Positions 2,779-64,000 of a stretch of DNA of 64,000 bases are shown here, piece after piece. The stretch covers positions 6,476,208 through 6,540,207 of the forward strand of contig BFEA01000003.1 in NCBI GenBank assembly GCA_003427395.1. The letters run 5' to 3'. The notes under the pieces are model-generated. The model searched no databases. It was not told the DNA's origin and saw only the letters and a program-made list of their open reading frames with translations. The position numbers and the translations under genes are program-made. Within the stretch, counting starts at the first letter, position 1. Each line of letters starts with the position of its first letter. The stretch is from Chara braunii (taxonomy: Eukaryota > Plantae > Charophyceae).

Positions 2779-2819
<41 letters not shown>

Positions 2820-6913: not shown

Positions 6914-6949
<36 letters not shown>

Positions 6950-7039: not shown

Positions 7040-7105
<66 letters not shown>

Positions 7106-11134: not shown

Positions 11135-11216
<82 letters not shown>

Positions 11217-26884: not shown

Positions 26885-29645
<2,761 letters not shown>

Positions 29646-30559: not shown

Positions 30560-32570
30560 TCCCAATGAACTCCGATATCGTCCCACAAGGTCAACATGCA
30601 TGAAGTAGAGAATACACACGGTGACACGGGAGAAAAAAAAACAGATAAATTCTCTCATGGATGCATGTTTTAAGGATGACATCTTCCCGACAGGACTGGA
30701 TATTGGAGTAGTTCGGTTGGGGGAGGATATTGCACGATTTAACCTGAATGAACAATTTTCAAAGTACAATACTGGTTGGCTGAAAGAACATGTCGTGACC
30801 ATTGTCTTCATGCATGATGCCAAAACCCTCTCAAACTCGGTCAAAAATAAATTGGTTCGTGTGTATGAAAATGGATGGTACGATGCGGGTTTGATTGCTA
30901 ATTCAGTTAAATGCAGACGTTACTAAAGTGAAGGGAAAAATCTGGCCTCCTTTGTTTCGAAAGAAACGAAAGTCATCAAATGGATGTCGGAAAAACAAGA
31001 CGATATGATTGAATGCGAAGACAAGGAATATGTGGTTCGTTTTTATCCTTGGATGACGTTAGTAGAAATGAAGGTATTTAAAGAAGTTGGAGCAAAGTTC
31101 TGCTGGGTGCGATGCCCGAGAGTCCCCCTTCAGTTGATGTCAGTCTTTCGGGAAGCAATCGAAAAAAACTTTGGTCCGGTGATAAAAACTCACCCCACCA
31201 AAGAATTTGAGGAGGAACCTGAATTAGGGTCTGTAAGACTGGACCTGGACTGTAGGGCACAGGCGGCGATCAAGCCTCGCCTGGTGGCTGGAATTCCCAA
31301 CCAAGGTGATTATTATTTTGAGATCCTCTTGGCAGATACGCCTTGGTGCGATACCTGCAGAATGTTTTATCACACTGACAATGACGATGTCTGCCCAGCA
31401 AAGGAAATTGACCCCTTCCTAATTCCGGGACCAAGACAACCTCCACCGTAGCCTTCCTTTTCAGGGTTTGTGCCGATGGGGGAGGAAGCCCCAAAATCAG
31501 GGTTCCGCAGACTGCCGGCTCACCTGATGAAGAAGGGAAAGAAGGAAGAAATATCATCCTCACGGAACCAGAAAGAAAGGAACCCCAAGCCAGGTCGGTA
31601 GAAGATTCGGAAAGTAGGGAAAGCAAAGAAAGGGAATAAGCCTAACGAAAAAGGAAAGGCGGAAAAAAATGGTTTGCAAAAAGGTATGGAGAAGGATTGT
31701 AATAAAAAGGAATTGGGAGTTGGCGCTAATAAAGGGGGACAATGAAAGGAAAAGAAGGGACAACTCTCCGAAGGAGAGGATTCCGACACCTCAGTCGGAC
31801 TGACACTGAACAGAGAAAAAAATGGTCAAAAGGGTCAGCCAACAGAGTCCGGGGACCATTCTACGACTAATCTTGAAGAAGTGGTCGTGAGAGTGTTGAG
31901 GGGTAGAGGAAAAAAGAAGAAGCAAGGGGAATAGGAAGAGGGAACAGGGCAAAGCGAATTGGAATAATATTGAGACTTTGAAAAATACACGAAGGGGGAT
32001 GGGGAAGGTTGGGTGGAACACCGAAAAGCAGAATTGTCGGGGAGACTCTTTTTGTCAGAACCAGTTCCAACATTGGACAGAGCAGATGCCAATATTTCTA
32101 AAATATTGATTCCGCTCATTTGTGCTAACTCAAGCAAGGGGGTCGTAGTGCTGGCCAACATGCTGGCCAACAAAGCAATGGAACTGCCATCAGTGGAAAC
32201 CGACACAGCGCTCACGGAACAGTCGATCCTGAATAAGGTGAAAAAACTGATTTCTAACTTTCTAAGTTAGAGTCATTCCACTCCTCAGAGTTGGGTGACA
32301 CAGCAGAAGACGATAATGGAACCAAAGCCCGTCTGTATTTTGTCTTCTTGGATGCCAAAGTGAACAATGAAATCAAAGAGCAGTTGTCGGCTATGAGGAA
32401 GGAATGATTTCCACTCGCAATCCTCGATTCAACGCTTAATGAAGAACTGGACATGCTCTTCTTCAGAAATTCAATATCGGCCAAAGTTATCGCTGAGTGG
32501 TTGACGAACTCTCCCAAACGAGCGGTGATTTTCTCGGCGAACTTCCCTGATATGTTAAGAGCCCCGTGGT
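30560..32570 (+). pseudogene. LINE C ORF1 remnant
   Basis: Fragments 30621-30926, 30984-31451 (WCDTCRMFYHTDNDDVC knuckle) and 32013-32270. Confidence 0.75.
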
Positions 32571-32599
32571 TTGAAGAACAAAATCTGAAAAGGGGGGAA

Positions 32600-33957
32600 G
32601 GAATGAGATGCCGCACACAAACAGAAGGTTCTGCGGCATCTCTTGGTCGGATTCATGGTTCAACCGGCACAGACACGACCTATGCTGCCTAAGGGCAGGT
32701 ATTTCTTCTTGATGAAAGGAAAACCGTGGTCGGCCTGTATACAGGTCGAAACCACTCAGGATTCTTTGTCAGACCACAATCCGGTCACAACGGAGTTTAA
32801 GATAATACAGGATAATAAATCCGGTCCTTCTTACTATAAACGGAATGTGAACCATCTAAAGGACAAGGGGATCCTGGACTGGATCAGTAAGCATCTGGAT
32901 CAATGTCACAAGGCCAAACCGCTGTTTGACAACGAGGAACAATGGACAAAAGTTGGCTTCAGACTTCTACAAGGGGGATTAAGTAATATCTCCCTAATAA
33001 AAACAGCAGTAAATCATAAGAAAGATGCAGATCTGAAGAAGAAAATTCACACAACGGAAATAGAATTGGGGAGACACCCCTTGGAAGTGATTGCTTCTGA
33101 AAACCGAGACGTTGCAATTCTGTTGCTGGACATGGAAAAGGCCTATGACCGAGTAGGTTGAGCCTTTGTGATGACCGCCTGAAAGCACATGGGGTTTGGA
33201 GAAAATTTATCCCGGTGGGTTAAAATTATGTATTCTACTGCATCAGCGGCAGCCATGGTGAATGGCTATGTATCTGGTAAGTTTGAACTGACCCGTTCGC
33301 TAAGACAGGTGTGTCCTTCAGCCCCCCTACTCTTTGTGGTACACATGGAAGTGCTACTGGATAACATAAAACATAACGAAGAGATCAAAGGATTGGAACT
33401 ACAGAATAAACTACAATGGAAGGGGGGAGCTCTGGCAGACGATCTCATGATCGCCTGCCAGAGTAACTGCCCAACATTGTTGTCCCTACGGAAAGTCCTT
33501 AATTCCTATTGTGACCTATCCAAGACATCTATTAATTGGATTAAATCAGTCTATTTCCTGCCAATGACCATAAATTTCAGGTTAACTGGGGATTGAAGCC
33601 GGTACCATCAAATGCATCTGAACACTTTTTGGGTGTCCAAGTGTCACTGGCAGAGAATGCAGACTTCCAGGACTCGCTGCTTGAGGAAAAACTCAGGAAC
33701 AGACTGCTGATTCAGAAGTTCAGCACAAAATGTGAGGCTTTACTCTCGTGGAGGACATAATGTGCCAAATGAAAAAGAAGCACTGGGATGTCTCGTGAAC
33801 ACCCCAGCATCTGTCTCTTATACACATCTAGATGTGTATAAGAGNNNNNNNNNNNNNNNNNNNNNNNNNNNNNNNNNNNNNNNNNNNNNNNNNNNNNNNN
33901 NNNNNNNNNNNNNNNNNNNNNNNNNNTCATGGCTGCCACAGCATCGCCCTTCTGCCT

Positions 33958-33988
<31 letters not shown>

Positions 33989-35895
33989 CACAGACTGGCT
34001 TCATGGAAAAATACCAGACACCTGTCGTTCTTGGGACGAGCGATGGTCATAACTTCAGCAGCCTTTTCAGTATTGTGGTTTGTGCTAGCAGCCCATATGC
34101 TGGGAGAAGACACTCATTAAAGGATCAAGAATGCAACAGCTAGGCTGGTATGGAAGCCAGAGGGTAAAGAAGAACAGAGTTTCTTTTCGAAAGTGGCATG
34201 GGAAACGGTAGCCTTCCCCAGAGACGAAGGGGGTTTAGGCATACTGGATCTGCGCCAACAGAATGTGGCACTGCTAGCTAAGTGGCCGGTGAAGGCACTG
34301 CACGACAAAGAAGACGATCCCTGGTGTATGCTGGCCTGAAATATCCTCTGCAAGGAATGGTCTCTGTCGAGAGTAGAAGATGTACAAGCTTGCTTTCTAA
34401 TTCAATCCTATGTAAACAAGAGACCGAAGTCTACCTTCTGGAGGAACATCTTGAGGGCCTGTCAACAACTTTGCCTGACTTACCGGGAGCAACCTTCGTC
34501 TAAAACGGCAGTTTTGACGCAAGGATTATTTGAAAACCCACTGGTGGATGATAGTCAGGGACAGACCTTTTCGGCCCATGATAGCGCAAACCATTTTGGT
34601 CGGTCCTGGGTTGAGAAGGGAGTGGTGCAGGTAAGAGACATCTGGGACACTCTGAAGCAGACATGGAGGACAACTCAAGAGTTAAGAAGCAGATTGGGGA
34701 GACTCAGGAAAATACCAGAAAAACTAGCGCAGATTCGACAGGCTATACCGCACTGGTGGGTATTGCTCCTCTCGAACATCAGCGGGATCCCAAGGACAGG
34801 GTACTGGTGCAGGGAAAAGGGGGACGAAGATAAGATTTTGCAGGTTACAGATGATCTTGGAGGAGAAGGGTACGCAGCGGTAGAATGGAAGAAGCCAGTA
34901 GACTTTGAATACAACAGAGAGCTAGTTAAAGGGGAGGTACCGAGAGTGGCTTCCTTGAAGGACACGGACTCCAAGGAGATAGTAGCGAGAGTGACCGCGC
35001 ACAGAGCTCCAGAAGGGGGTACTCTGCTACAAAAAGTTTCTCTTCCTATGGGACTCAAACCTCTGCAAGAAGCCCCTGTGGATGTCAGAGCACTAGAGTG
35101 CTGGAGTGATAAGGAAAAAAAGGTGATAACGCTAGACCAGTATTCCTCGAAGAAAGGAACAGATACGCTGACTCAGAGATGGAAAGTTGTCAAGAAGCCT
35201 GTTTTCGTAATTGAAAAACGTAGAAGAAAGCAGGATTTGCTGCCTATCTCGAAAGAGGAAACATGGTCCCTGTGTAGACAGTTTAAAGCTAGACCCTCGC
35301 AAAAGTTGGCAAGTATGTTGTGGCTACAACTGTTCTTGGCAACAGCAACAGCAGTCTGTTTAGTTAGTAAAGGTATGAATGTCTCGGCGAGCTGTGTACG
35401 ATGTAGGTGGATGTGGGAAACAAACAGGTATCTTTGGCTGACCTGCCCAGATGTAGACGCATTTGGGAGTTGTGGATTTACCACTGGAACCGGATCACAG
35501 GAGGAGTTTTTCAGTGGTCTGATGAGTGGATAGTCTCAGGCATTTACAGGGCTTCAGACAAACAGGGGAACAGTTGGTTGTATGTAGCTCAGACGACTAG
35601 AGCAATCATCATGAAAGTAATATGGGACGATAGGAACACTCAACTATTCAAGGGACAACACATGTCAGATCTGGCAATTAAGAACCGGATTGCTCTAGAC
35701 ATTAGGACAACCATCCAGAGTGACTGGTCTCGAAGATCACAGAAAGGACAGACATCAAAGACTGTGAAATGGTTTTGGGACACATGGGGGAGAGAGTCCA
35801 GATTAGCAAAGCTGTACCCGTCAGGTAGGGTCTGTGTTGCGCCATGGCTGCTCTCCCCCACCGGACATGGGGAGCGTTTTAGCTCCCCGCCTTGA
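32600..35895 (+). pseudogene. LINE C ORF2 remnant with large internal deletions
   Basis: SDHNPV (end of EN), LLDMEKAYDRV, SLRQVCPSAPLLF, ALADDL, W...GGLGILDL and CVRC...WLTCP. Most of EN and the RT N-terminus are missing. Confidence 0.88.
33811..33844. other. Nextera mate-pair junction adapter (assembly artefact)
   Basis: CTGTCTCTTATACACATCTAGATGTGTATAAGAG immediately before an N gap. Confidence 0.98.
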
Positions 35896-36864: not shown

Positions 36865-37289
36865 CGCCAACTTGTTGCTGTAATATACTATCAATTGCTT
36901 GTCCATGAACTGTGTCCATTCGTGATTCTGCACCATGTATGTCTTCATGTACTCTTGAATTTCATACTAGGGGCCACAAGGACCTCACAACAAGAAGCAA
37001 ACAAAGAAAACCACATGTCTCACGGTCCTCACATACTGGCCAGATACACTCCTCAAAGCACTGGTGTAACTTCCACCTACGTGAGGGTCTTCCCCACATC
37101 GGTGGATTGAAGCTGGATTCATAGTTCCTCTTTTCTTCTCTTTTTTTTTTCTCTTTTTCTTTCCTTTTTCTTCTTTGGCCTCCATCCCTGCACTGTTGAA
37201 ATAGAGACCCTGGTTCAAATGGCTTAATTCTGAATTGTGTGGGGCGGGCCTGCCACACCCTGGCACGTGACATCTGGGCCGTGATCAAT

Positions 37290-37385
37290 CTGGGGTGTGG
37301 CCGTGGCCAATCTGGGGTGTGGCTGAGACATCTCGGGCGTGGCCAGTTTGGGGTGTGGCCAAGACATCTCGGCCGCGGCCCAACC
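37290..37385. repeat. ~38-bp GC-rich minisatellite (2-3 units)
   Basis: GGTGTGGC..AGACATCTCGG.CG.GGCC units, same unit as 38935-39130. Confidence 0.75.
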
Positions 37386-38407
37386 ATGGGGCTGGTTTTT
37401 TTTTTTTTTTCCCTCAGGTGCGGTGCGACGCACAACCAAAAAAAAAAAACAAAAAAAAAACGGCCATTTGCCTGACTGAACTGCTAGAAAAGGCCAGCCC
37501 GAGTTTCAACTGCATTTGAAACTTGGGCTACACTGCTAAAACGCAGTTTGAGATGCATTTACAAACTGTAACCCTGACTGCGCCGGAGTTATTTCTTGTT
37601 TTTTTTTTGCAGCTTTTAGCCAACGGGCACTGCACAGGGCTGTGGCTCCACTGCTCACCAAATGCGCAAACTGAGAAAGAATCTCCCCTACAAAATGGGA
37701 AGATACAGCCCCCATATTTCTTGGCCTTTTGTGATGTTTCCTGCCAACGGGAAGCGCATTTTTCCGAGCACCACAAGCTCATTTTTTTGAAGTCGCGGGC
37801 CATTATTGCTTTTTTTTTTTTTTTTCGTGTCTTCTATTTTCTGTTGCCGCATTTTTCCCTTTGTCCAACAACTGTCGCCGACCTCCCAAAAACCCGGCCC
37901 TTTTTTTTTTTTTTTCGCAGCTCTCACTCACCGGAAACGGCGGAAAGCATAGTTTTGGCCAGCGGGGGGAGTGGTGGGGCCTTGAAATAAGGTAAGGGCT
38001 AGCATATACATTATCTGAGGCACAGCTCATAATGTGCCCGTGCCACCCAATCCAACAAGACAGAATCCCAGATATTATCTGCGGCAGGGCTCACAATGTT
38101 GCTGCGCCAGTGCAGTGAGGGTCTGAAGTTGTAACCTGACATCGGGCGCTTTGAGTAGTAATCCGACCCAATGAAACAAGGCGAAATCCCAGATACATTG
38201 TTTCAAAATCCCAGAGACATTATCTGAGGTACGGCTTATAATGTGGCCGCACTTCGAATAGAATCTGACGCACCACATAAATTAACGTAGCAAGGAAGAA
38301 TCACTTTGCAGGTTGCATGGTATCTCCACCTTTTACGCAGGTGACTCCGTGAGTGGCATTATCATTACTTTTTAATAATTTATCTCATGGCAGAAAATTA
38401 AGAATGT

Positions 38408-38481
38408 CGCTAGAGGGAGGGGTCGAACCTCCGACCTTATGGTTAACAGCCATACGCTCTAACCTACTGAGCTACTCCAGC
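38408..38481 (-). tRNA. tRNA-Asn (anticodon GTT), nuclear type, intact
   Basis: GCTGGAGTAGCTCAGTAGGTTAGAGCGTATGGCT-GTT-AACCATAAGGTCGGAGGTTCGACCCCTCCCTCTAGCG. Full cloverleaf, A and B boxes, upstream CAA, and a T4 terminator at 38394-38397. Confidence 0.97.
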
Positions 38482-38821: not shown

Positions 38822-38934
38822 CGTTACCGTCTTTTCTTTCTTTTTTTGCAGGATCACGGAGGTGGGTTGGAAAAAGAATCGAGGAGGGCTGGGGTTGGAA
38901 AACGACTCGCGGAGACCCCCTTTTGCCATGGCAC

Positions 38935-39130
38935 AGCCACGGGTGTGGCCTAGACATCTCGGCCGTTGCCCGGCCATGGGCGTGGCCTAGACAATTCGGC
39001 TGTGGCCCACCCACAGGTGTGGCCTAGACATCTCGGCGGTGGCCCAGGCACAGGCGTGGCCTAGACATCTCGGCCGTGGCCCACCACGGGCAGGGCCTAG
39101 ACATCTCAGCCGTGGCCCAGCCACGGGTGT
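38935..39130. repeat. ~38-bp GC-rich minisatellite (about 5 units)
   Basis: Repeated GTGGCCTAGACATCTCGGCCGTGGCCCA. Confidence 0.85.
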
Positions 39131-41045
39131 GGAAAAAAAAAATGAAAAAAAACTTTAAAAAAGCAACAACGACTGGCCGCCTGATTTTGCCCCTTTCAAA
39201 CTTCCGACCGGGTAGGCCGTATGGGCCACCTGTGGAGACTGCATGGGGGGGTGGGAAATCGTCACAGGTAGAAACACCACCTGGGGTAGTCCAAGTAGTT
39301 AGGGTCTGCCTGATAGCCAGCAGGTACGAGTCAATGCTTGTCTCATCGAGTAGCTGGCTGGTCGTCTCTAGGCAGTGTATAGACATTGGGGTACTCTCGA
39401 AGCTACGTCATCAGGGTCCTAGGGCCCACCAGGGACCAAAGCAAGGGTGGGCTATGAGATGGGTATAGGGGCTGGAGGGACTAGTAGAGAGGACACCGCT
39501 GAAGTGTAGCTCGGGCAGGACTTGTACTGCGCCTGTCTCCTGTGTAGTGGGTAGGGGATAGGGGTTTTAAGGGGTGTGTACTTTACGTTAATACGAGGGA
39601 GACATGCTCTCTATGCCCGTCCGAGGAGGGATCGGCTAGGGATATGCTAAGTCAATGGTTGGGGGACAAGGCTGCTTAGAGTGGGGCCCCGCAATACATT
39701 TGGAGGTTGGATCTGTAGGGACAGAATCCGATCTCTAGTGGCAAGCTGTAGGTGTGGAAGGGACTGAATCTGCAATAGGACTTCGGGCTTCAAGTGTGTG
39801 GTGGACTCCGTCTAGGAAGGTCCAGAGGGTCAAGTGGATTCCAAACTTCGAGTGACTGAACCCCGGAGAGTACTCCCACGCCTGATACCCTGCCTCTACA
39901 ACAACCTGGGCGTTTAGAAAAAAAAAAGAAAAAGAAAAAAGAAGTGCACAAAGCTGTTCTTTGTTTGCAGTTTCTAACTGGCCTCGGCCCGGATCTGCAT
40001 AGCCCTGTTATTCCTGCAAATTCAAGACTCCACACCTCACTCTCGCACAGTCATTATTATTATTATTTTTTAGGGTGGTGTTTCTGGGTATCACACTCTG
40101 ACATGCCCAAATATCTGACAGAGAAAAACATGGCTTCTGTCCAGTCGCTGTGAGGTTTGGGCGACATGAGAAGATGAAGGTCCACCAGTCCGCGAGCAAG
40201 ATGTGCAGGTTAAGCCGTTTTTCGGAAGAAGGGGACTGTATGCGCCCACTCATATGCATTCATGATAAAAACAATATCAGAGATCAGCAGAAAGTTCCCG
40301 AGTTGGTGCTAGTGGTGCTGATAAGAGCAGAAGGTTCTTGTGAATTACGCACTCATGATGACGGTCCCAGTGTAAATTCAATATACTGTCTAGTGGCTAT
40401 ATATAAGGCTTAGACCCTGGGGTAAGGGTAGGGGTATAAGTCGCTCAGGCCAGTCCGAGTTCCGCCTGGCCTTGGGTAAGCTAGGGGAAGCTTAGGACGG
40501 TAAGACTGCTTCAATGGGTGCTACCCTGTCTGAAACCCAGGGCCCAGAGTCTCTTGGGGCCTGTAGTAGATTGTCTGGGCCTGGCGTCCGAAGTTCCCGT
40601 TCCACAAGACTCGTCCGATTCCGCTTCCACCAGGGCTGGGCAACCTATCAGCCATGGTGCCTATCACTACTGTTGGGTCCAAGTTACCTGCCCGTCGGTA
40701 GGATAATGGTCCTGAGTGCTGGTCACACTGAAGTAGGATAGTGGGATAGGGGGTGCGCTACTAGGAGTATTGACATGAGGATGGGATGGGAGGCGGTCTC
40801 ATATTCCAGGATACCCACGACCTACTGCTCCAGGTGATCACTGTGTACTCAGTGACTGGCCTCTACAATACCATGGACTTAAAAAAAAAAAAAAAAAAAA
40901 CTAAAAAAAAGACCTCCAAAAAAAAAAAAAAAAGATAATAATGAATAAGAAATCAAAATTTCCTTGCAGAGGGGGCCGTGTATTATTTTTTGCTTTTCTT
41001 GTTTAAAAATGGGTCTTCCCCGTCACGAGACCCCACCCACCCCCA

Positions 41046-45399: not shown

Positions 45400-46513
45400 T
45401 AAGTGCCCGCCGAACACAGGACCTGGTAGGGTATACAACATTCTTGGGGACCAAAGTAGAAGAAGGGTTCTGGCATCTGCTCTTCTGTTTTTTTCAGCAG
45501 CCCGGCTGCGGAACGGTAAGTACCCGCCGAAGAAGAGCAGGTCAGCAGATATCGTCGCCAATGCAAGAAGATACGACCAGGACTAAAAAGACAAACGACG
45601 ATGCTGCGCCTACGCCCAAAAGCTTGACAACACAGCAACAAAGAACAGGCATACGACGGAGACAGTGCAAGAGAGTCACGCGACACTCGTGCTCGAACGG
45701 TCAGACAGAGAATGAGTATCCTGATTGATGTCTCTCAAATATTTTCACTATCTTTGCGGTTACTTTCTGCATTTTTATTTCTTTTTTGTACTTTTTTGTT
45801 TTTTTGCATGATATCGGAGTCTACTTGGGAAGCGTGTTCTCATGACAAGGGAACTCAGGGAGGGTAGTGGATTTGAGAGTACATAAAGAGTACTATGAAG
45901 CTAGAGCTTCGAACCAGACTGAGAAGAGTGAGGTAGAAGGTCTGTTGCTTGGAGTATTCCCATTGCACATTCAGTGTGGTTACTCTGTGAGATTAAAGCC
46001 TCTACGACATTGTTTTTTGAGTATTCATCTCTCGTTTGAACCAGGAGAACGACTCTGCAGTTGGGCTGAGGATCACTCGCCTAGCGCCATATCTATTGAC
46101 TCATGTAGGCTGTTATCGCCTCATCGAGTACAATATGAGCATGGTACCCTATCGTTTTTTTTTCATATCTTTGGATTGATTATCGTTATTATTATTGTTG
46201 GTGAATTATCATTAGATATATTGATCCCCAATTTCGGACTTCGATCCATTGAGGATAGTTGATCAATAGATCACCAGTCATTCTGTGTGAACAGCATCGA
46301 TCAGACTAAGTCTTGGAGATCACCGAGATCGCGCTCCTCTCTGACGGACTGTGACGGGCCGTGTCGAAGTGAGTGTGCGAAAACTTCCAAGACCCCAAGA
46401 CACATCCAAGGAGAAGATTCGGACGACAGGAGACTTCAAGGAGCCGTGTGTAAGGACGTGGACATGGTAGAGGGAGAGGCAGGGGGAGGTGGTCAGAGGA
46501 CAAGAGATACTGG

Positions 46514-51480: not shown

Positions 51481-53567
51481 ATTCGAGCAAACACAAACTC
51501 GGATGCCTTAGTGCCAATTGCACTCATCACTCTGCACAGGGAGTTGAAGGGAGTGAACTTTTCTATAGAAATCTTTCTGAAAGCACTCAATATTATGGCC
51601 AGGCGGGCGGGTGGATTTTGGACAGAACTGGTACCTATTAAGATCGAAGGGTGTTACAGACAGTGGTAGACTACCCAATCATGGGCCCGGCGCAAAAACT
51701 GATCTTAGAAGCCTAGTCAGAAACCCGTTTTTCCAAGTGTTTTCCAGATCCAACTGCAGTAAGTACTCGCCGAACACAGGTAGGCCCAGGGTATACGGAA
51801 TTCTTGGGGACCAAAATAGAAGAAGGGGCCTGGCATCTGCTCTTCTGTTTTTTTCAGAAGTCCGGCTGTGAAACGGTAAGTACCCGCCGAAGACGACCAG
51901 GTCAAAATATATCGCCACCAATCCAAGAACCAAGACTAAAAACTTTAAGACAAACGACGATGCGGCACCTACGCCCGGAAGCTTGGCAACACAGCAACAA
52001 AGAACAGGCATACGACAGAGACAGTGCAAAAGAGTCACGCGACACTCGTGCTCGAACACTCAGATGGCACAGAGAACGCGTCTCCTGGTGTCTCTCAAAT
52101 ATTGTCACCATTTTTGCGGTTACTTTCTGCATTTTTATTTCATTTTTAATTTTGTTTTGTCTTTTTTTTTGCATTATATCGGAGTCTACTTGGGAAACGT
52201 GTTCTCACGACACGGAACTCAGGGAGACTAGTGGTTTGGAGAGTACTTAAAGAGCATGAAGCTAGAGCTTCGAAGCAGACTGGGCAGCGTGGGGTAGATT
52301 CTGAAGGTCTGTCGCATGGGGTATTCCCATCGCACATACAATCATTATGTGGTTACTCTGTGAGATTAAAGCCTCGACTACATTGTTTTTTGAGTATTCA
52401 TCTCTCTGCAGTCGTGACCTCCTATCTGCTCCTTACCCCCTAAAATCTATCCACTAGTTCTCATCTCGGCGCCCCCGTCAGGCAGTGCTCCCTAAGCCCT
52501 CCCCAAGGTTATCCCCCCTGTGCAAGACTGGGCGGCAAGTACACGGGGTGTCATACTGTAACGTCAACCGAGCGTGTGCACAACAGCATTAGGATCGACC
52601 GGAATCAGACCCGCAACCTCTTGGGTGCACCATCTGAGATCCAACCAACTGATGCACCACGCTTACCCCTGCTCTGGGGGCACGGTAATCTTCTCTGTAT
52701 CATTCCAATGGTATCGAATGACACCGTCCGGAATAACTCCTAGTTTAGTTCTGGCGAAAAGTGTACACTGAGATCTAAAATAAGAAAGATGGTTGCTGTA
52801 AACCGTTTAACAGTTTATGTTTCAAACCTGTGCGGATGTCCATTAGAAGAGCTGTGATACTGTCTGAACCTCTGCAGAGTCTGACATGGATAATGGCAGC
52901 ATAGTGACTGTCCTTGTTTTCGGTCTGCTGATGACGCTCAAATAGAAATGAGATTGTTGCCCTTTTCGATTGATCCAGCTCATGTGCCTGAATGGTGCAC
53001 ACATGGAACCATGACAACACCAGTAATTCCGGGCGTCCTCTTCCCAAAGCGGATTTGAGCTGCATGCCAAAGAAAGACTGGACCAGTGTGTAAGCCTTTT
53101 TTCTTTTTGGCTGGCACCGGCAGCTATTTCGGCCTGGACTGGAAAGCCCTGGAAGATGCGGCCTTGCTATGTGGCGCAAGCACTGCTGCACACCTGAGAA
53201 ATTTAGATGTGAAAAGGACTGGTATTTTAATACAGAGCTAATATGAGCTTGAAGGGAAGAGCTGGGGTGGGTCGTGTCGCCCTGTAACTCAGCGTTGGGG
53301 GTGTGAGATGGTAGAGTCCTGCAGTGGCATGAGGACATGGAGCTCAAGGCAGTCTCGGTTGGCTTGGTGAACAGTGCTAGCCTAAGGATAACTTGGTCTC
53401 AGTTTCTGACGAGCTTCAGTGATTATAATGACAGTTGTGTATCATCTGTGCTTTGGCTTGACTCTAGGGTTTTGTTGTGGGTAGCCATTTTTTTCTGAAG
53501 TTTGTCTCTGAGTCAGTAATTTTCTGAATAGCTCAAAATTTTCTTAGCCGAGGCCGGGTAATCGCCC

Positions 53568-53603: not shown

Positions 53604-55164
53604 CGCCCTTGTGTCTCAAACTTTCAATTCTCTGTAAGGTTCCGTATCCGGTGCCGGGCCCGGTTCCCATCACGTGCCGCTCCCCATGAATAGATTGGAG
53701 CCTTGTCCCAAGTGAAAAACAAAAGAAAGAAAGGAGTTTGAACTTTGAAGGGAATAAGATGGATAGAATAAGGTTAGGTGCTTTTGGGTGGGCTGGGAGA
53801 ATTAACGTGGGGCAGGGTAGGGAAGGTGGCCTATAATGTCAGGACAACCATTGGCCGCCGCCGCCAGCGATCACACCGTACGTCTGGTCCTTGGCCTTCC
53901 TGGTCCTTGGCCTCTACAACACCCTGGGCTTTACAAGGGGCGCGGGGAGAGAAGACAAAAAAAAGAGTGCTTTTACCCTGCACAAAACAAAAAAGAAAAG
54001 AACAAACAGTAATGAACCTGAGATGCACGCTCTATGAAAAGCTTGATTGCAAAATGCAGTCGTGGATGCAAAGCTCAGCCATGCAACAACTACCAGGCCC
54101 GGCAGGCCGCTTTTCGATTTTTGAGTGAAATTCGATCTGCTCTCAGACTGCCTGCTCGTGGAATCATGATGGGAAATGGTGCACCCATTGGATTCAGTGC
54201 CGCTCCAAAGGAGCCTTCAAGTTGGCCTCTTCTCAAAAATGCATTGTCGCGGGTGTCCCCCAACCTTTTGCGTCCTGGGGTTGGGGTTGGGGGTTGGGGT
54301 GGAAGGGGCCTATGAGGGTATGGGGGCAAGCGGTTCACACAGGCGTGTGATAAGCCAGGATCCGTACTCAACGGTTTCCCGTAAGGGAAAATCCCGCGTA
54401 AAGCCCCGAAGTACGGATTCAAGATAATAGGGAAGAACGGGGCTTCATTTCTATTTTTTTTCTCTCTTTCTTTCTTCCTTTCCTTTTTTTCCTTGACCAA
54501 AAGAGGGACGGAGTAGAAAATGTAATTCGGGTCTCGTGCGGCCGGTTAGCAGCCGCGCCAAGAAATTCAAGAAGCGGTTGGGAATTAGCGGTGGTAGGAA
54601 TTGTGAATTTTTGCGCGCGCGGTTGTTTCTTTTGAATTTTTGCGCGCCGCGTAAACCCGTTCTCCCGCTCTTCATCCCCGCACCATCTTCCTTTCTTGCA
54701 GCACATCCCCTTCCTGCATGTCTCTTTGTCTTCCCTCTAAGCGAAGTCCGATCCCCCCCCTTCTCCTTTCCCTGTGAATGATTGGCTGTCTGATTGGGAT
54801 GGTCGGGGCAATGTGGTGGTGGTGGGAAGAGCACCCCACTTGGACAACCACCCCAATCACGCAGATCATCCGACTCGCCTACTTCGATTCGTCTAGAACC
54901 TCTGCCCTTCTTCTGTCTTGCTCATCTACGCCCCGTGCTTCGCGCAGCCTCCCTGCCGCTTTCCACGCTATAAATTCTCGCAACCCCTTCCTCTCACTCT
55001 CTTTGATCTCGGCTGCAAGCTGTGCAAGCTATACGTGAAGCCCGCAGCGCCGGAAAGGCTCGACGTGCCCCGTGGTGGACGGAGTGATGGCGGGTGGCGG
55101 AGTTAGCGGTAGACTTGGGGTAAGGCAGCCGGAGGGACTGAGCGGTGGTGGAGATCAGATGCCG

Positions 55165-55878
55165 GCAGCGGCAGCGCCTTGTGGCTATGATTGTCGGTGG
55201 TTTTGACGGTTTGGGGACTGGGCCTGGAGCGGCCAGTGGTGAGAATTCTGTATTTTAAGACGGTTTTTTTCTCCATTACTGCTTTGTTCCCGTGTGATGT
55301 GTGCATGGCTCCAATGTGTGGGCAAATTGAATCCATTATGCATATTCGGGTGTGAAAGTCTATGGATGTTAAATGTCTCATTGAGGGATCTATGAGTAAG
55401 TGTGCGTGTATGCGCCCACAGGCCTGATAACAAGAAGTACCGAAGGTCGATTGCTTGCATGAGTGCATGAGTGCGTCGGTCCTTCCTCCTCTCATTCGCC
55501 TTTTAACCCGCGTGGGTGTGCAGCGGCAGGGCCTTGTGGCTATGGTTGTCGGTGGTTTTGACGGATTGGGGACTGGGCCTGGAGCAGCCAGTCATGAGAA
55601 TTTTGTATTTGAAGACAAGCTTTTTCTCCATTGCTGCTTTGTTCCCGTGTGATGTGTGCATGGTTCCAATGTGTGGGCAAATTGAATCCGTTATGCATGT
55701 TCGGGTATGAAAGTCTATGGATGTTGAATGTCTCATTGAGGGATCTATGAGTAAGTGTGCGCGTATGCGCCCCCAGGCCTGATAACAAGAAGTACCGAAG
55801 GTCGATTGCTTGCATGAGTGCATGAGTGCGTCGGTCCTTCCTCCTCTCATTCGCCTTTGAACCCGCGGGGGTGTGCAG
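55165..55878. repeat. 355-bp tandem duplication inside the LTR
   Basis: Copies start at 55165 and 55520; high identity throughout. Confidence 0.95.
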
Positions 55879-56114
55879 GATACGCGCCAACCTCCTTCCG
55901 ACGTCTCTCTCTCTCTCTCATCGTGCGCAAGTCGGGTCTCCGGGGGGAGGCGGATAATCTCGAATAGAGCGGTCGTTCGCGTTTCCTCAACACAGCCGAC
56001 CTCTCCGCGCCCACCCCGGGGTCCCCGACAACTCGTTCAGGTTGATGCTACAAGGAGAGAGACATAGAAAGGGAGCTAGGCGCATACTTGTCGGTGAGAT
56101 TCGTTGGTCTTTGC

Positions 56115-56564
56115 ATGGAGTCGGGTTTCATCTCGACAGACGGGAGCGCTGGCCGTGGCCAGAGCTCTGACTTTGTCCCAGGGCATCGCAGCACGCTTCG
56201 GCCCTTCCCGATCGCAGACGACGACGGCGTATACTGCGATGCGGATGTGCGGAGCATACTGCGGCGCATTGAGCCAATCCATCTTTATAACCCGACCCAG
56301 GCGTGCCACATAGGAGGGAGGTTTGTGCTGATTGAGCGATTTTCTTCCTCGCCTTTAATCATGCCTTGCACAGACCTCACGGTGTCCCCCTGGTCTGCTG
56401 TGCACACCGCGTGGCGGGCGCAGTTTATTTGCCACGGGTGTCGCCAGGGGGACTCATGCTCGCGGCGACGGTTGGTCCTGGGTACAAAGGAGCCGTCCGC
56501 TTCCTCGAACTCTCCCGCACCGTGGGTGCCCTCCCCGCCTGTTTTCGAACCTGGGTTCCATTGA
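56115..56564 (+). CDS. LTR-encoded hypothetical protein (149 aa from ATG) with a 4-Cys domain
   Basis: Uninterrupted ORF; homologous at protein level to the ORF in the solo LTR (28909-29412). Confidence 0.72.
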   Translation: MESGFISTDGSAGRGQSSDFVPGHRSTLRPFPIADDDGVYCDADVRSILRRIEPIHLYNPTQACHIGGRFVLIERFSSSPLIMPCTDLTVSPWSAVHTAWRAQFICHGCRQGDSCSRRRLVLGTKEPSASSNSPAPWVPSPPVFEPGFH

Positions 56565-56925
56565 CCTGCCCGACCCCGGGCAGACCTGTGTCGTGCCGCC
56601 TGCACAGACTTAAAAGGTTGGACGTCGAAGCCTGAACCCGATTTCTGGGTCTCCGCCCCCAAGGGCCGCACGAACCTGGTGCCTAGGGGAACAAAGCTCC
56701 GTTCCCGTCGGCTTCGTTTCTCCCTTCCCCTCTCGTTTTCTTCTTTTTCCTTTGTCAAGAGGTGATCCGGTCGGGCCGTAGGACACCGTTATTCGCCCTC
56801 GGCCTGAAGCAAGAGTCCCCCGTTTCGTCCAGGTGGTTCAACCCCCACGACCAAAAATCCTCGGTCACGCCCCTAACTACTCTGATCGGCGTCCGAAGTA
56901 CAGAACGCAGCGCGGGGCGTGAGGT

Positions 56926-56937
56926 TGGTATCAGAGC
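56926..56937 (+). promoter_or_regulatory. Primer-binding site complementary to initiator tRNA-Met
   Basis: TGGTATCAGAGC. Confidence 0.93.
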
Positions 56938-57106
56938 TGATTTGTTTCGGCTTCGAGCCTTCGAGGTCTCCTTTGGGGGCAACTATCCATTTAGTTGAAT
57001 TTTCTTATTATTTGTATAAACCTTTTTCTTTTTGCCCAGGCACCGCTGCCCCGCGAACGCCTATCACAACCAACCAAAGGGGCGGGGGTGAAACCAACCC
57101 CACGCC

Positions 57107-58217
57107 ATGGTGGTCCTGATGGAAGTTTTCCTGGAACCAGGACAGGAAGTGGATAATCATGCAGGACTGGCGGACCATCCCCTATACTTTGTTCCTCCTC
57201 CCTCCGAAGTCCCCATCTTCTCGGAATATGAAACGGACCCACGCACCTGGCTGGCGGCCCTGAAGGCTCAGGGTTGGATGGACCAGTTGCTTCGAGAACA
57301 GATTCCGGGAAGGTTAGCTGAGACCGCGTTTGAATGGTATGGACAAAACCTCTATACCAATTGGCCCACCTTCCAGAGGAAATTTCTCGAACGCTTTGAT
57401 CACATCGCGCCCGGGCAGTGTTTACGCCTAATTAAAGAATATACGCAACAACCCTGTGAGACTCTGGCTAGGTGCGCGGAGCACTTTACCTACTTGGCTG
57501 AACGCTCTAGGGTTGATAAGAAAATGGTGCAAACCGATTTTGTCCGCAGATTATCTGATTCCGGATTGCGGAAAAAGATCAGTAAGAAATACAACCCAAT
57601 TGAACATACCTTAACTGAGCTCATTCAGTATGCTATCAAGTATGAAAAATAAAACTATGATGTAGGTTTGGATTCAGAATCCGATGACGATAACCCCATT
57701 AGGTGTCTGGCGCGATAGCTATTCCTCTACGGCTCGGATGTTCGAAGATTGCTTTGGATTAGGAACGACCAAGAAGAATCTCGACCGAAGAGCCCCATCT
57801 TCTTCCTCGGCCTCCCGCCGCCCCCTTACGATGCAAGGAGGACGGGACGTAGACAAACCCTCAATGAGGGAGATAGTCGCACAACTTGTGACGATCGTGG
57901 TGCTTTTAACCGAGTTTGTTCAAAGCTTGCAGAGGCAAAGGGCGGCAGTGGCACAGAGACAACCAGTGGCCAGAGCCGCAGGGGCAGCGCTGCCTAGACC
58001 TGCTGTAGTCGGAGCTACTCAGCCTATCCGATGTTATAATTGCAATCAGCCCATACACTTGCCCAAGGACTGTCCGTGACCCCATGCTCGGGTAGGGTTT
58101 GCTGGCCCATCCCAGATCCCCCTGGTGGCTCCAACAGTTGTAGGATAAGGGGGGGTGGCGACAATTATGAATGCGGGGACCCCAGACATGGTGGCCCTGG
58201 CGGCTGCTGAAATTGGG
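57107..58217 (+). pseudogene. gag: Gypsy gag remnant
   Basis: Retrotransposon gag-like LAETAFEWY...WPTFQRKFLERF; CCHC knuckle CYNCNQPIHLPKDC near 58032-58073. Confidence 0.88.
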
Positions 58218-59718
58218 ATCGATGAATATATGGCGGCTGCGATGCTCGAACCCGGAACCATTGGCGTAATCCGCCATACCCCGCGGGTTACTGGCGAAAG
58301 CAACTAAACAAGGAGTTGTCGGTTTTCACCGAGAGCACGATGGCTATGAGTTGACTGTCCACTGGGCTTATCGGTTCGTTTTCCGTTTCGCTTTCTTCCC
58401 CGAGTTCGACTTCGACCGAGGGTTCTACCAAAAATGCTTGTAGGAGTTCCCTCAGGTCCCATGCACTTTCAAAGGTCCTAGGTTGAAACGCTACCTCTTC
58501 TTCCAAAAGCATTGCAGCCTTGGTGTCAGTGAGAAAGGCTTGCGGGGGCCTAAAATACAAATCGCATAGCCCCCTAAGCTCGACAAATCTCTCCGAGAGG
58601 GAGTCCGTTCTGAGATACAGGGACGCAGGGGGTTCTAGGAGGTCGATTATCCGTGACACCCTTAGCAAAGGTTCCCCTCTCACGGTAGAGGAGAACATCT
58701 GAGACGGTGAGACCAACTAGACTTTCTCTGGATAATCCCCGTGGACACGTGTCGCCCAAGTTGGCGGAACCGGTCTTGGATTCATATCGGATATCGGTCG
58801 AGTTCGTCTGAATCCTCGGTTTCCATTGCGGGTCTTTCTTCGCCCCTTGACACCCATCGAACCATGTTAACTTTGCGAACCTCGGTGAAAATGTGAGGGG
58901 CTGGCTGTGCGCGTACACGCGCATCCATCCTCATGGGTATCGTTTGGGGCTTATGGTGGGCCGAGGTGAGCACTATTTTAGAACTGTTAAAATGCATCCG
59001 CTCCCTCACGGGATTCCTAGGAACACATCGTACGCCTGCACATCCAGTACAATCGCGTCCCATAAGCGATGCACCTGCCCGACTCTTATAGGAACATCCA
59101 TAATCCATCCTTTACAATGAATGTTGTCCTCTGTGGCAGATACATACAGCTCGTCGGGTCGGAGGGGCTGAACCTGTTTCTCCCGACCCAAACGCTTCGT
59201 CAAACTCCAAGAGACAGCTATGGCCAACGGTCCAGAATCTGGGATGGCGGCTGAGGGGCTTCTCCAGGCCTCGCAGTCACACTCGACACTCTTCTAGGTA
59301 ATCGGGTAAGCCTGAAGAAACACCTCGGGTTTCTCTGGAGGTGGATCTACGGCGTGGATCATGTCGACCGGTTGGCCTCGTGGGTTTTCAAAGTTGAGGG
59401 TTAGGCCTCGACCACCACCGATGGGTCGTTGATCACCAACTTCTTACCTCTTCGACCCTCTTCAAACGGCGCCGGTTCTTCAGGTGTCTTTCAATCAATT
59501 TCTCGTTGGCAACCTCTGAAATGGTCACCAGGTAGGGAATAGGTTCTGCCATACTGGTATCCGTAGATCCAGAGCCTTCAAGGCAGCTAGTACGTCGATT
59601 TGGCCATCCTTGTACTCGGGACCCTGTATCGTGGGGTCTTTGAATCCGGGTCTCAGAGGAAACCGCCCGGGTCCCAACTGTCATATCAACGGTCTCCCTT
59701 CCTAGTGGGAGCATCGAT
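58218..59718 (-). pseudogene. Inverted pol segment containing the aspartic protease
   Basis: Minus strand reads AAIPDSGPLAIAVS (DSG at 59239-59231) ... DVPIRVG...AIVLDVQAYDVFLGIP. Confidence 0.88.
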
Positions 59719-62700
59719 ATTCAGATACTTGCCCATGTACCTAGCGAATATCGACACCTCCTCCTTGCGGTAATATGGTCTTACCCCAAGGCGGTCAGTA
59801 TCCAAGATCACGATATAGGACTGGCGCACCTGATAAGGCACACGATTGATACCGGGGACCACACCTCAATACACTGTCGACCGTACCGCTACTCCTTAAA
59901 GGAACGACAACTAGCCTTGGAGAGGGTACGGGAGTTCGAGTGTCTAGGATGGGTGGAACCCTCCCTATGTCCCTGGTCGTTCCCTGTGATCCTCGTGCCG
60001 AAACAAAACGAGACAGTCCGCGTTTGCATTGACTATCGGAAATTAAATGCAATTACCACCAAGGACGTTTATCCTCTGCCTCGCATCAATGATCTTTTGG
60101 ATGCCATTGGTTTTGCACGAGTCTTCTCGAAATTCGATATTCGACACGGGTTTTACCATGTTGCAGTCCGACTTGAAGACAGACCCAAAACGACCTTTCT
60201 CTTATTTGAGGGCACGTGGCAGTGGATCAAATGTCCTATGGGAATGTGCAACACACCCGGGACGTTCCAGCGAGCCATGAATATGGCTTTCGCAGAATTT
60301 GTTAACAAAACCCGCCTGACCCAACCCCTAGTAAATTTTTGTGTGATTGTGTATATGGACGATATTTTGGTTTTTCCAAAACACATGAGTGTCATGTGGA
60401 ACATGTCGAGTGGGTCTTGCATGCATCGAAAATCGCGGGGTTCAAAGTGGCTTTGGAGAAAAGCGGGTTTTTTCTCTCGGAAGTCTCATTCTTGGGATAC
60501 ATCGTCGCGGTGGATGGCTTGAAACCGGATCCAAGGAAGGTGGCCGCTGTACAAGAGGCACCGGTGCCGGTCACAGTCACTCAAGATCGAGCTTTCCTTG
60601 GCCGAGCTTCGTACTATCAACGATTCATCCAAGGGTTTGTCGGCATCGCCAAACCTCTGACCAATTTGCTGAAGAAGGAAGAACAGTCGATCTGGACGCC
60701 GGAGTGCGAGGCGACTTTTCGGGCGCTTAAAAAGGCCCTGACCACTTCTTCGATCCTGGCGCGATCAGATCCGACAAAACCGTTCGCTCTGCACACTGAT
60801 TGGCAGCCGCAGATAATATCGGCGGTGCTGACTCAGCAGGGAGCAGACGGGAAAGAGCACGTCATCGAGTACGCATTGAAGACACTAAGCCAGACGCTAT
60901 GAAATTTTGAAGCTTGCAAGGGCGAGTGTTTGGCGGTGGTGTGGGGAATCCAATATTTTTGACCGTACCTTCACGGCCAGAAGTTTGTCATCGTGACGGA
61001 TCATCAACCGTTGTTGTCCTTGCGAAACAACACAGATTATACGAAACCTTGGGAAGGTGGGCAGTGAGGTTGCAAGACTACAATTTTGACATCCACCATT
61101 GCGCGACCAAACAACACGGAAACACGTACAGACTGACCCGCCTCCAGCCACCGAAGAAGTGCCTACTGAACGAACGACTCATTCCGTGGAAGGAAGCTTT
61201 GCCTTCGACGAAGCCTCGCTACGGAGAAGTACAAGTCGTTCGCAAACCCCCTTAAGGCAACGACTACCCTTTCATCTTACCCCGACTTTTCAACCCACTC
61301 CTCTACCCCTCACTCTCCCTCTAGCCTATCTCTGCATTCCTGTTTTTTCTGCACCTTGCCTATGATACAGGACCGGGGAGATTCACACCCTGGAGGACCT
61401 AGTGTTCTCTCATGGGTGGGATGCGGTCAATGTTGCGTGACGTGGTCCCACAGGTGTTGTATTAGGTACCGGAACGAGAAGAAGTAGGACTCCCCCAACT
61501 GTTGAACAGACCAAGTACCCACGGAGAAGCGAATGTATAGAGGCTAGGACCAAGGACGAATTTTTGCCAAGCGTCCGTAGGGCAGAGGTTTGGACGGATA
61601 TCCTCCTATTGAGGAGACTCAACGGAGACCCGCTGGCGAGGCTTACCAAGGCGGAACGTCGGCGAGCCACGGAACGGGCTCATGATTATCGATGGCAGGA
61701 GTCGGCCTTGCAAAAATGAAAAGACACTCATGATAGTGGGTCTAGCTTGCTGATGGTTCAACACCCTCTCGCTAGGTTCGATTGGACACGAGCTGCCTAC
61801 AAAGAGGATGCGGTCCATTTCGCGGTCAATTACACGGGAAAAGCTATAGAGAAAAACAAATGGTATTGGTCGGGAATTCGGGAGGATGTTAGATACATCG
61901 TCCAGAATTGCCCGGCATGTGCGGGCGATAAAGCGTCGGTATAAATGCCCCGAACAATGGTACCGACTAGGGTAGAACGCCCTTTTCAACGGGTTAGCAT
62001 CACTACGACATATATCAACGGCCCGAGACGTCTAGTCGATTAGAGTGAGCTCAATGTCCTTATAGTGGTCGTCGATCATTTCTCCAAATGCATCGAGGCC
62101 TATCCTATGACTAGTCGGAACTCGCAAGAAGTGGTCTGGTATATTAATTGTTTTTTATGCATGCATTTGGACGTAGAAGAGGTACACATGGATAACGGGT
62201 CAGAATTCCAAGGGGAGGTAGAGCGACATCTCATAAGGGCCGACGTTAGGATTTCGTACTCGCTAGGGCACTGGCCACTGGCCAACGGGCTCGTAGGGAA
62301 CACCAATCGAATGATTAAGACTACCCTTAGACAGAACATCACTGCAGGAGATACCGGGCCCTGGCCTGTCATAGTCAACCACATCTTAGCCGTCTATCGG
62401 GCTAACCCCCACAGCAGTATAGGGGTGTCCCCGTTTCAATTGAGAACCATTAGTGTCCCCCTTGTGCAACTGTCACCTCTAGTAGGTATAGAAGTTAGCG
62501 TGACTCGGGCTCAACACCGATAAAAGGTCCAGCATTACATGGATATGATGGCTAGGACCTACCCCACATTAGCCTGAAGGCGACATAGGGCCTTGGATCT
62601 GACACACCAGCGGCAGATCAGAGACTACGAGAACCGACATGCATCCGCTGGTCCCCTACCCCGCTATAAGATCGGGGATCTAGAGCAGGTACAGAAATCC

Positions 62701-62898
62701 GCGCGCTCCTCCAAGATCCATCCTCGCTATACTGGCATTTACGAGGTGACGGAAGTTGGCGCACAAGGCCAGCACCCCGTGAAGTTGATCCCCCGACACA
62801 ACACGCAGGCCAGGCAGTTGACTCACCACACTGCTGCCCTTCGTCTATTCCAGCCATCGCTGGATCGCAAGCGAGCTCCGGCCCCGTTGTCGGCATGA
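59719..62898 (+). pseudogene. pol: Gypsy pol remnant: RT, RNase H, integrase
   Basis: RT: HTIDTGDH, PWSFPVILVPK, CIDYRKLN, SKFDIRHGF, YMDD (60352-60363). RNase H: FALHTDW, TDHQPL. Integrase: YWSGIREDVRYIVQNCPAC, VVDHFSK, DNGSEF, PRYTGIYEV. Confidence 0.95.
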
Positions 62899-64000
62899 AT
62901 ACCCTTACGAGGGTATCCGCCCTGGTTTTTGCAAATGANAGAAAAATGAGTTTGGTCTAAAGTTAAGTATACCGCGCGAGGCGCGGTTGCGTCTGTGCGG
63001 TTACGATGGCCGGAAGGTTGACTAGAACAAAGGGTGTGTGGGCGCGCAGGTTTGAGGCACGCGTGATTTCGTTTCTGTCGTTGACTATAAAGTCGGCGCG
63101 GGCGCCAGACGGTTCGTTTTTATTTTTTTCTTTATTTTTATTTTTGTTTATTCTTGATTAAACTAGGATCTAAGGGATATTTTCTTTCGATGGCTATGTT
63201 TGACCGAGTCGAGCGCGCGTGCGGAGAACGACCCCGACGACAGCATCGGCAACGACGGTGCGACTTCGTGCGGCGAGCGGGGTGTCGTAGGATGGCACGT
63301 GGGGCAATTATGGCACGGTATAAGCAAGCCAGCGTGGGCACTGGGAGCCGCATAGCCGGTTTGTTGGCCCAAAGCGTCGCGCCGCACTGCCTATGTGGTA
63401 TTCTGCGGGACTTAGTCCCAGGCTTGGGCTTAGCCCTATTGGTTACAAAAGGGGACTAACATGGTAGAGGTTTGGGAATCGAGGCCAGCGAGCGTCGGCG
63501 CAGCGGCAGAGGAGTAGTGTGGAGCGAAAGACTGAGGTCTTGAGGGCCCTGTGGGGCTATCCCCCTCGGTTTTGCTTGTGGGTGCGGCAGTGGGCCCAAT
63601 TCGGAGGGCTGGCAAGGTGCCTGCAACCCCGCGGTTCCTCGAGGTTACTGATATTTTATTTCCCTTATGTTTGTTGTTCTTGGTCCCTTTGCAGGACGCG
63701 AGACTGCGGTAGGAGCGCATGGGGGTGTGTTGTATTCGCGGGGTCGCCTGAAGTGCAGTTACGAACGGTTTTCGTGGCTATGCTGAAGCCCCGCCCGACG
63801 CCGTTTTGATTGGGACGCGGTGCCGTGGGTGTGGCAGGCACCCAAGAGTCCTAGCTCAGTGGGTATACCCACGAACTGTCAGGATACAGACCCAGGGCAC
63901 GGGTGGAGTGGCCTTTGGCTTTTCGTAGGGGAATTGTCCCCATTAATCCTTCGGGACATCCGTAAAATTTGGTATAGAGAAGATTCGCATATGCCCTTCA

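Follow-up and report, generated by a model that had tools for sequence, protein, structure and literature searches.

Does a long terminal repeat (LTR) of a Gypsy retrotransposon in the streptophyte alga Chara braunii contain a protein-coding gene of its own? The usual view is that LTRs are non-coding and that lone LTRs are promoter scars. The question is raised by an open reading frame of 149 aa (ORF A, 56115..56564, forward strand) in the stretch of 64,000 nucleotides analysed here, hereafter called the window. An earlier reading, made from the sequence only, had proposed that this ORF lies within the 5' LTR of a Gypsy element, that a homologous ORF occurs in a lone LTR of the same window, and that both encode a selected accessory protein. 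We estimate the probability that a real, selected protein gene resides inside these Gypsy LTRs at about 0.93.

Position of the ORF within the LTR

Unless stated otherwise, the LTRs, genes and signals of the elements described are on the forward strand. The 5' LTR of the Gypsy element (element A) spans 54346..56927, approximately 2.58 kb. At its TGTGAT start, the summed contig depth of DNA runs X1 and X2, which is not a copy number, increased from 10-20 (up to bin 54228-54341) to approximately 2700 (from bin 54342-54455). At the other end, 53 contigs of run X2 exit the window at 56927 and continue for about 11 bases up to a CA terminus, the mirror image of the LTR start, before entering varied flanks. 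The primer-binding site (PBS; TGGTATCAGAGC, 56926..56937), which is the sole match in the window and presumably of the tRNA-iMet type, comes next. Hence, the depth jump, the contig exits, the PBS and the gag-pol region behind it place ORF A inside the 5' LTR. In the window copy, the LTR joins the PBS directly (56920-56937), without the approximately 11-13 terminal bases present in other copies, and this is likely a small deletion private to the window copy.

Both gag and pol are broken in element A. The gag region (57107..58079) matched Retrotrans_gag (E = 2e-4) and a zinc knuckle (E = 5e-3) in Pfam, both below the curated cut-off. The pol region (59950..62898), which contains stops and frameshifts, matched RVT_1 (3e-20), RT_RNaseH_2 (3e-28), Integrase_H2C2 (8e-6) and rve (1e-7). 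RVT_1 starts at 59950, RT_RNaseH at about 60700 and H2C2/rve at about 61800-62260, and the resulting order gag - RT - RNase H - integrase is that of Ty3/Gypsy elements. No Pfam chromodomain match was found in the integrase frame of this decayed copy (one frame, to 62898). Element A runs more than 1 kb beyond the integrase (62900-64000, with a single N at 62939) and reaches no 3' LTR there. Either its 3' region is long or the assembly has been joined at this place. The 3' LTR lies outside the window and no contig spans the ORF plus a 3' end; we infer that the ORF is also present in the 3' LTR of family A.

Upstream of ORF A, a TATA box at 54969..54975 is located in a CTATAAA..CGCAA context that aligns with the LTR of a second family (LTR B, at 27792), and the bin containing this box is among the deepest in related contigs. 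The U3 region contains an inverted CCAAT/ATTGG pair (54780..54870), which may form a weak hairpin (RNA fold z = -1.9); these boxes are likely promoter elements. The leader contains a 355-bp tandem duplication (55165..55878; 93-94% identity) that is absent from many related copies, as indicated by a depth dip and by joints that skip it in both DNA and RNA. Taken together, the depth boundary at 54346, the TATA box and the PBS at 56926 confirm the original placement of the ORF in the 5' LTR, downstream of a TATA box at 54969.

A lone LTR of a second family

A lone LTR of family B (26885..29645; 2.76 kb) is inserted at the 3' end of a LINE. It has the termini TGTGACG...CGTCACA and an imperfect target site duplication (AGGGA / GGGGG), and its final 35 bp can be aligned with the terminus of LTR A. 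Its TATA box (27792..27798) aligns with that of A. The U3 region contains an inverted repeat with CCAAT arms (27605..27659; 26-nt arms, 81% complementary), which gave RNA fold z scores of -4.8 in the window and -3.1 in a metagenomic contig, L001. This contig carries a second B-family LTR, 81-82% identical to that of the window, with the ORF present, a CA end and no PBS. For family B, the location of the ORF within the LTR is thus observed directly, in the lone LTR of the window and in L001.

ORF B (28873..29412) comprises 179 codons and ends in an Arg/Lys-rich C-terminal tail. Codon 12 is an in-frame stop in the window copy, at a site where the related proteins P0001 and P0005 read through. 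The claim of a homologous ORF in the lone LTR therefore holds for the frame 28909-29412, which aligns with ORF A, but not for an intact ORF. The gene nevertheless survives in the lone LTR together with its likely promoter, as had been proposed, in the form of the ORF frame and the TATA box.

The layout of the two LTRs is similar. The ATG follows the TATA box by 1146 bp in A and by 1081 bp in B, and the conserved core precedes the LTR end by 728 bp in A and by 712 bp in B. In both LTRs the inverted CCAAT pair lies 110-190 bp upstream of the TATA box, at the same distance but with the opposite order of the arms. The presence of this pair upstream of both TATA boxes supports their role as promoters. 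With the transcription start placed by the conserved TATA box, the gene most likely lies in R/U5 rather than in U3.

Several other sequences were found in L001 and in the window. In L001, the B-family LTR contains an AT-rich insertion of approximately 530 bp with inverted ends of approximately 20 bp (1980-2507; MITE-like). It adjoins a copy of a third family, C (2557-4047, minus strand; 74% identical to protein P0004 and frameshifted near the N-terminus), which has a T-rich leader with strong acceptors and LTR ends outside the contig. The B-family LTR seems to have inserted into this family C copy. In the window, a 51-bp near-identical copy of LTR B (29351-29401) occurs at 6972-7041, beside an N run and an adapter-like sequence that we take to be a Nextera adapter end; this copy is likely a mate-pair assembly artefact. 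Several decayed LINE-like elements (5389-13537, 19393-26884 and 30657-35895) were recognised by eye from ORF translations. Direct repeats at 45428-45705 and 51788-52064, 87-92% identical and 6.36 kb apart, are possibly the ends of another element. Finally, a tRNA-Asn(GTT) gene is located on the minus strand at 38408-38481, with 36-37-bp repeat arrays nearby (37269-37412 and 38929-39149).

Similarity of ORFs A and B

Comparison of ORF A with frame 28909-29412 of LTR B by blastp gave 25/86 identities (approximately 28%; pairwise E = 2e-11), in good agreement with the 24/83 identical residues of the earlier hand alignment. When ORF A was compared with the whole window by tblastn, B was recovered at E = 2e-8, while the next non-self match had E = 0.16. 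The Smith-Waterman score of A versus B was 106, whereas 3000 shuffles averaged 29 (sd 4.6) and never exceeded 57. Of the 36 frame pairs of both LTRs, this pair alone aligned. Identity per codon position was 51/53/21% over 98 codons, so that third positions are saturated, and the same codon was used at 4 of the 25 identical residues other than Met and Trp. At the DNA level, blastn found no match across the two ORFs; the LTRs align only at the TATA region and over approximately 35 terminal bases, which bears out the patchy alignment described before. These results imply that the likeness between A and B exists at the protein level and is far beyond chance.

The conserved core of ORF A covers codons 29-111. 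Its stop (56562-56564) is the minority state among related copies, and the frame is open to 56765. Hence, the family A protein is likely longer than 149 aa.

Protein family and database searches

Searches with profile A2 against 1.84 billion representatives yielded four matches in total, with no free-standing host homologue among them. Profile A3 matched two of the 7996 longer proteins that were scored, and P0005 was added. Searches among proteins of near-equal length yielded none of 22 candidates for A and one of 54 for B. All named matches are gene models of Chara braunii, namely P0002 (CBR_g19774, with DCP1), P0003 (CBR_g22074, with RT-RNase H) and P0005 (CBR_g17916), each of which contains pieces of the LTR ORF. 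The other two matches are NCBI proteins without a name. These models are likely annotation chimeras, for which the LTR gene would account; real fusions of LTR and host genes are less probable.

The aligned proteins fall into three groups. Group A consists of ORF A and P0003, with 52% identity over the core. Group B consists of ORF B, P0001, P0002 and P0005, with 70-83% identity. Group C consists of P0004 and the minus-strand copy of L001, which are 32-38% identical to B and 22-25% to A, and of which the LTR ends are not in view. P0003 starts at a Met aligned with Met1 of ORF A and its model continues into RT-RNase H; it is 79% identical to the window element in RT-RNase H and 48% in the accessory part.

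Invariant columns of the alignment are Cys1, FV, F, P and PW. The spacing C-x22-C plus CxxC noticed earlier is kept in A (C41, C64, C106, C109) and in B (C33, C56, C100, C103), but C-x22-C is not kept in family C, where P0004 has a Thr in place of Cys2 and an adjacent His. Overall, Cys1 is present in 7/7 aligned proteins, Cys2 in 6/7, and CxxC in the 6/6 that reach it. Given the substitution in P0004, a C4 site, and with it the zinc binding proposed earlier, is no more than a candidate. The C-terminal tails are rich in Arg and Lys in B (15 of 50 aa), in family C (11 of 56) and in the A frame beyond the early stop (15 of 66), and are not alignable between families. Before the early stop, the A frame has no basic tail (5 R/K in 40). 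The maximum 19-residue Kyte-Doolittle mean was 0.88-1.32, indicating a soluble protein with no transmembrane segment.

As had been anticipated, no described domain emerged. Pfam assigned no family to any of the seven aligned members; a match to HEWD on the CxxC of B (E = 0.21) was rejected. A plant mobile domain, Transposase_28 and an env-like transmembrane segment were not found in the protein, and PDB sequences gave no matches. The ESM Atlas gave no usable match for A or P0001, a result that bears on neither novelty nor absence. AlphaFold2 models had pLDDT values of 37 and 43, too low to be of use. With the second of these low-pLDDT models, a fold search of BFVD gave no matches at E<=0.001, while the best hits of a wide PDB fold search (Z up to 3.7; kinase N-lobes and SH3-like barrels) were taken as noise. 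Metagenome scans recovered none of 202 loci with A and one of 63 loci (L001) with P0001. No match was obtained in viral contigs searched with P0004 or among GTDB genomes (0 of 34). A further locus, L002, matched by the LTR-end motif, showed no homology.

Purifying selection and decay

We compared the window copy of ORF B with that of L001. The frame of 540 bp contained no indels, whereas the flanks (approximately 1.5 kb) contained 29 indel events (P about 3e-5, or about 1e-3 without the indel-rich block). Nucleotide differences were distributed over the three codon positions as 23/19/49, and dN/dS was 0.21-0.34 (Fisher p<=2e-6). A permutation that kept base and CpG context gave 0.36-0.46 (P<=5e-4), also without CpG sites. 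Shifted frames had a ratio above 1. In the antisense frame with the same wobble positions the ratio was 0.41-0.48, similar to the sense frame; this frame is excluded as the gene only by its stops (five in the B core, one in A) and by the absence of an A-B alignment. A 135-aa antisense ORF in B (28837-29244) was likewise rejected, as stops break it in L001 and it shows no constraint.

For family A, we scored singly all 32 variants at a share of at least 20% in 56175-56465, using run X2 only. Among variants with a share of 20-80%, 13 of 23 were synonymous against 6.4 expected (P = 0.003). Variants at a share of at least 80%, which are mostly private to the window copy, included two synonymous changes out of nine (2.5 expected). 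Together, 15 of 32 variants were synonymous (8.9 expected, P = 0.015). This pattern points to constraint in active lineages followed by neutral decay after insertion. Furthermore, frequent frame breaks, named beforehand as evidence against a selected gene, were absent: the A core has no indel at a share of at least 20%, with three single-contig joints showing decayed copies, and the 12 best-supported rows contain a single indel within ORF A, of 3 nt. A dN/dS far below 1 in B and the synonymous excess among shared variants in A thus bear out the proposal of a selected gene.

Every DNA copy examined is damaged, however. ORF A has an early stop, ORF B a stop at codon 12, the B-family copy of L001 stops six codons before the shared end, and its family C copy is frameshifted. 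In combination with the weak RNA support (see below) and with three named matches that are all long Chara gene models, this damage could indicate a host or transposon fragment that is passively carried, or a gene that was formerly useful and has since died in every lineage. We regard such a relic as very unlikely, because selection acted within families A and B and not just between them, and because decay after insertion accounts for the stops. Moreover, the 1.84 billion representatives yielded no free-standing host homologue, and the long gene models look chimeric, combining LTR pieces with DCP1, with RT-RNase H or with unrelated exons.

RNA evidence, leader and candidate splice sites

RNA run X5 contributed 45 reads of 8.9 million, with almost none over the ORF. 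Run X6 contributed 457 reads of 16.7 million, in both directions and across the whole LTR including the ORF; 292 of these 457 reads had less than 90% identity, and the strandedness of the library is not given. Among the joints listed (15 of 226), none was an RNA splice joint, and the sole RNA joint among those listed skips the 355-bp duplication.

The leader from the TATA box to gag is approximately 2.1 kb long and contains 35 ATGs before gag, with 24-30 ATGs before the accessory ATG. Plain scanning therefore cannot reach gag or the accessory ORF. A motif scan identified a candidate splice donor at 55120..55125 and two more at 55396 and 55751; in L001, no clear equivalent of the one at 55120 is present. 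Candidate acceptors upstream of ORF A (55994..56040) have their AG at 55994 and 56039, and rank first and fourth of the 65 leader AGs by our own pyrimidine-tract score. The splice suggested earlier from 55120 to 56040 did not appear as an RNA joint among the same 15 of 226. Between the LTR and gag, a polypyrimidine tract followed by CAG (57018..57039) is a candidate acceptor for gag-pol at 57038. It ranks second of the 525 AGs in 54969-64000 by our own simple score, and no ATG lies between this site and the gag ATG. The strongest pyrimidine tract plus AG of the element is located near the 3' end of the LTR (56737-56761), where it could act as a 3'-end signal or serve as an additional acceptor. 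In family B, 11 ATGs lie between the best acceptor (28531) and the ORF start.

Being located in the genomic RNA leader, where 35 ATGs precede gag, the ORF could also be a translational device, either a conserved uORF or a reinitiation or shunt factor that carries ribosomes across the leader to gag. Caulimoviruses provide a precedent for shunting and reinitiation across a long leader. We consider this quite unlikely here, since the amino-acid constraint over approximately 85 residues across families, with saturated third positions, exceeds the needs of a cis-acting uORF, and since gag could be reached more simply by way of the strong acceptor.

Possible functions of the protein

By analogy, we tentatively assign the protein a role in RNA export or splicing control. 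It would be a nuclear, probably metal-binding regulator that lets intron-retaining genomic RNA exit the nucleus unspliced, in the manner of Rev or CERV. Transcription from the TATA box would produce the leader of approximately 2.1 kb. Splicing from an early donor to 55994 or 56039 would generate the accessory mRNA, and splicing to 57038 would generate a gag-pol mRNA without the PBS. U5 and the PBS would then be kept only in unspliced RNA, making this the sole form that can be reverse-transcribed. An element of this kind would have to regulate the export or the splicing of its RNA. Furthermore, because the gene lies inside the LTR, it would persist with its promoter in lone LTRs, from which the protein could be provided in trans.

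The Cys motif, the basic tails, the lack of a membrane segment and the strong acceptor at 57038 are consistent with this role. Several observations count against it: the RNA is sparse and shows no splice joint among those listed, the donor at 55120 lacks a clear equivalent in L001, 11 ATGs precede ORF B after its best acceptor, Cys2 is replaced in family C, the A frame has no basic tail before its early stop, and the copies in the window and in L001 carry stops or a frameshift. Pfam, PDB and fold searches revealed no sequence or fold similarity of the protein to Rev, Rex or CERV, and no RNA response element was identified in the LTRs. The U3 hairpin is not supported as such an element, as it is built on CCAAT boxes of which the order is reversed between A and B, and fits DNA promoter sites better. 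A more elaborate version of the model, in which the LTR is a complete spliced gene with a U3 promoter, an intron-containing leader and a metal-binding regulator in R/U5, and in which three RNAs are governed by a Rev-like switch, is rather doubtful. If true, an accessory mRNA, a gag-pol mRNA without the PBS and an unspliced genome would all originate from one LTR, and the many lone LTRs would constitute a dispersed, trans-acting gene family.

Alternatively, the protein might be a transactivator or anti-silencing factor for the LTR promoter of its own family, supplied in trans by lone LTRs. VANC proteins are a precedent of the anti-silencing kind, and Tas of foamy viruses is one of the transactivating kind. 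The Cys motif, the basic tail and the lack of a membrane segment would fit such a role. The accessory part evolved faster than Pol (48% versus 79% identity), as expected if a protein and its target site change together. The U3 regions of the families cannot be aligned, yet in each the inverted CCAAT pair is equally far from the TATA box. Of the 91 differences between B and L001, 75 are transitions, in keeping with a host that methylates its DNA. On the other hand, no DNA-binding or activation domain was recognised, a transactivator driven by the very promoter that it must activate would need a basal leak, and the strong acceptor before gag is left unexplained. On balance, this role seems somewhat improbable.

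A role in the particle or in integration is unlikely. The protein could in that case act as a chaperone for the minus-strand strong-stop DNA, which a long R/U5 would make unusually long (approximately 1.9 kb), or as a nuclear-import or targeting factor; the 1.96 kb from TATA box to PBS, the absence of a chromodomain match up to 62898 and the basic tail agree with this. However, Gag already has a zinc knuckle, the ORF is neither fused to nor in frame with gag, and nothing links the protein to particles. Our preferred reading thus remains RNA export or splicing control, at the tentative level given above.

Comparison with known systems

At least two LTR families, diverged beyond recognition at the DNA level, retain a selected protein gene downstream of the promoter, and its products form a new protein family. 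The literature searched, mainly the main texts of open-access articles, contained no description of this family, nor of a protein gene in the R/U5 of a retrotransposon. This accessory gene of Gypsy LTRs is therefore apparently undescribed, and its position downstream of the promoter is unusual. A phrase on 'ORFs within the LTRs' (PMC6673714) proved to be a methods line on the elements' own ORFs and describes no LTR gene. The parts of a paper on Burro elements that we consulted (PMC6431247) do not mention an LTR-embedded ORF. Our results suggest that a streptophyte alga hosts retrotransposons with regulation like that of complex retroviruses. The protein, of approximately 170 aa, offers a handle on the export of unspliced RNA or on the escape from silencing in elements of the plant lineage.

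The extra ORFs of plant Ty3/Gypsy elements (Ogre ORF1, Athila env-like, Grande gene23, Retand) are described as internal to the element, where they either precede gag or follow pol ahead of the 3' LTR (PMC7264820). Like the Chara gene they are element-encoded and kept within a family, and some are nuclear, according to the sections consulted (PMC7264820, PMC6317226). Unlike them, the ORF described here lies upstream of the PBS and occurs in lone LTRs. As far as its consulted text indicates, the REXdb survey set a minimum ORF length of 250 codons (PMC6317226), and with this threshold it would miss an ORF of approximately 170-180 codons.

The C. elegans Gypsy element Cer1 encodes CERV, which is translated from a spliced mRNA and required for export of genomic RNA. 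This Cys-rich, fast-evolving protein of 517 aa may form a C4 finger and has a candidate NLS; in the excerpt available, no homology is reported outside its own lineage (PMC10309623). From that excerpt, both CERV and the LTR protein are accessory proteins of LTR retrotransposons with a possible Cys finger, both evolve fast and neither has a homologue found beyond its lineage, although splicing is only predicted in our case. CERV differs in that it has exons and reading frame in common with gag and is encoded in the internal region, and it showed no sequence match to the LTR protein. Foamy viruses have their major splice donor in R, and express Tas and Bet from an internal promoter in env rather than from R/U5, according to the passages seen (PMC5035957). 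Judged by those passages, a splice donor in R, separate spliced mRNAs and accessory regulators would be shared features, with splicing in the Chara element being only predicted.

ORFs within LTRs are familiar from retroviruses, and it is here that the parallel drawn by the sequence-only reading can be judged. Lentiviral nef overlaps U3, and sag of MMTV is a membrane protein. The ORF of sag/naf lies in the LTR, within U3, according to the portion of the source at hand (PMC9412291). On that description, the MMTV ORF resembles the Chara gene in being internal to the LTR, so that it is duplicated in each provirus and retained in lone LTRs. The comparison with sag and nef therefore stands for an ORF inside the LTR, but not for its place therein. 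Whereas sag is located in U3, upstream of the main promoter, as described in that portion, the LTR ORF of Chara begins approximately 1.1 kb past a conserved TATA box, in what is most likely R/U5. Furthermore, unlike sag, the protein has no hydrophobic segment, and it is encoded by a Gypsy retrotransposon in an algal host.
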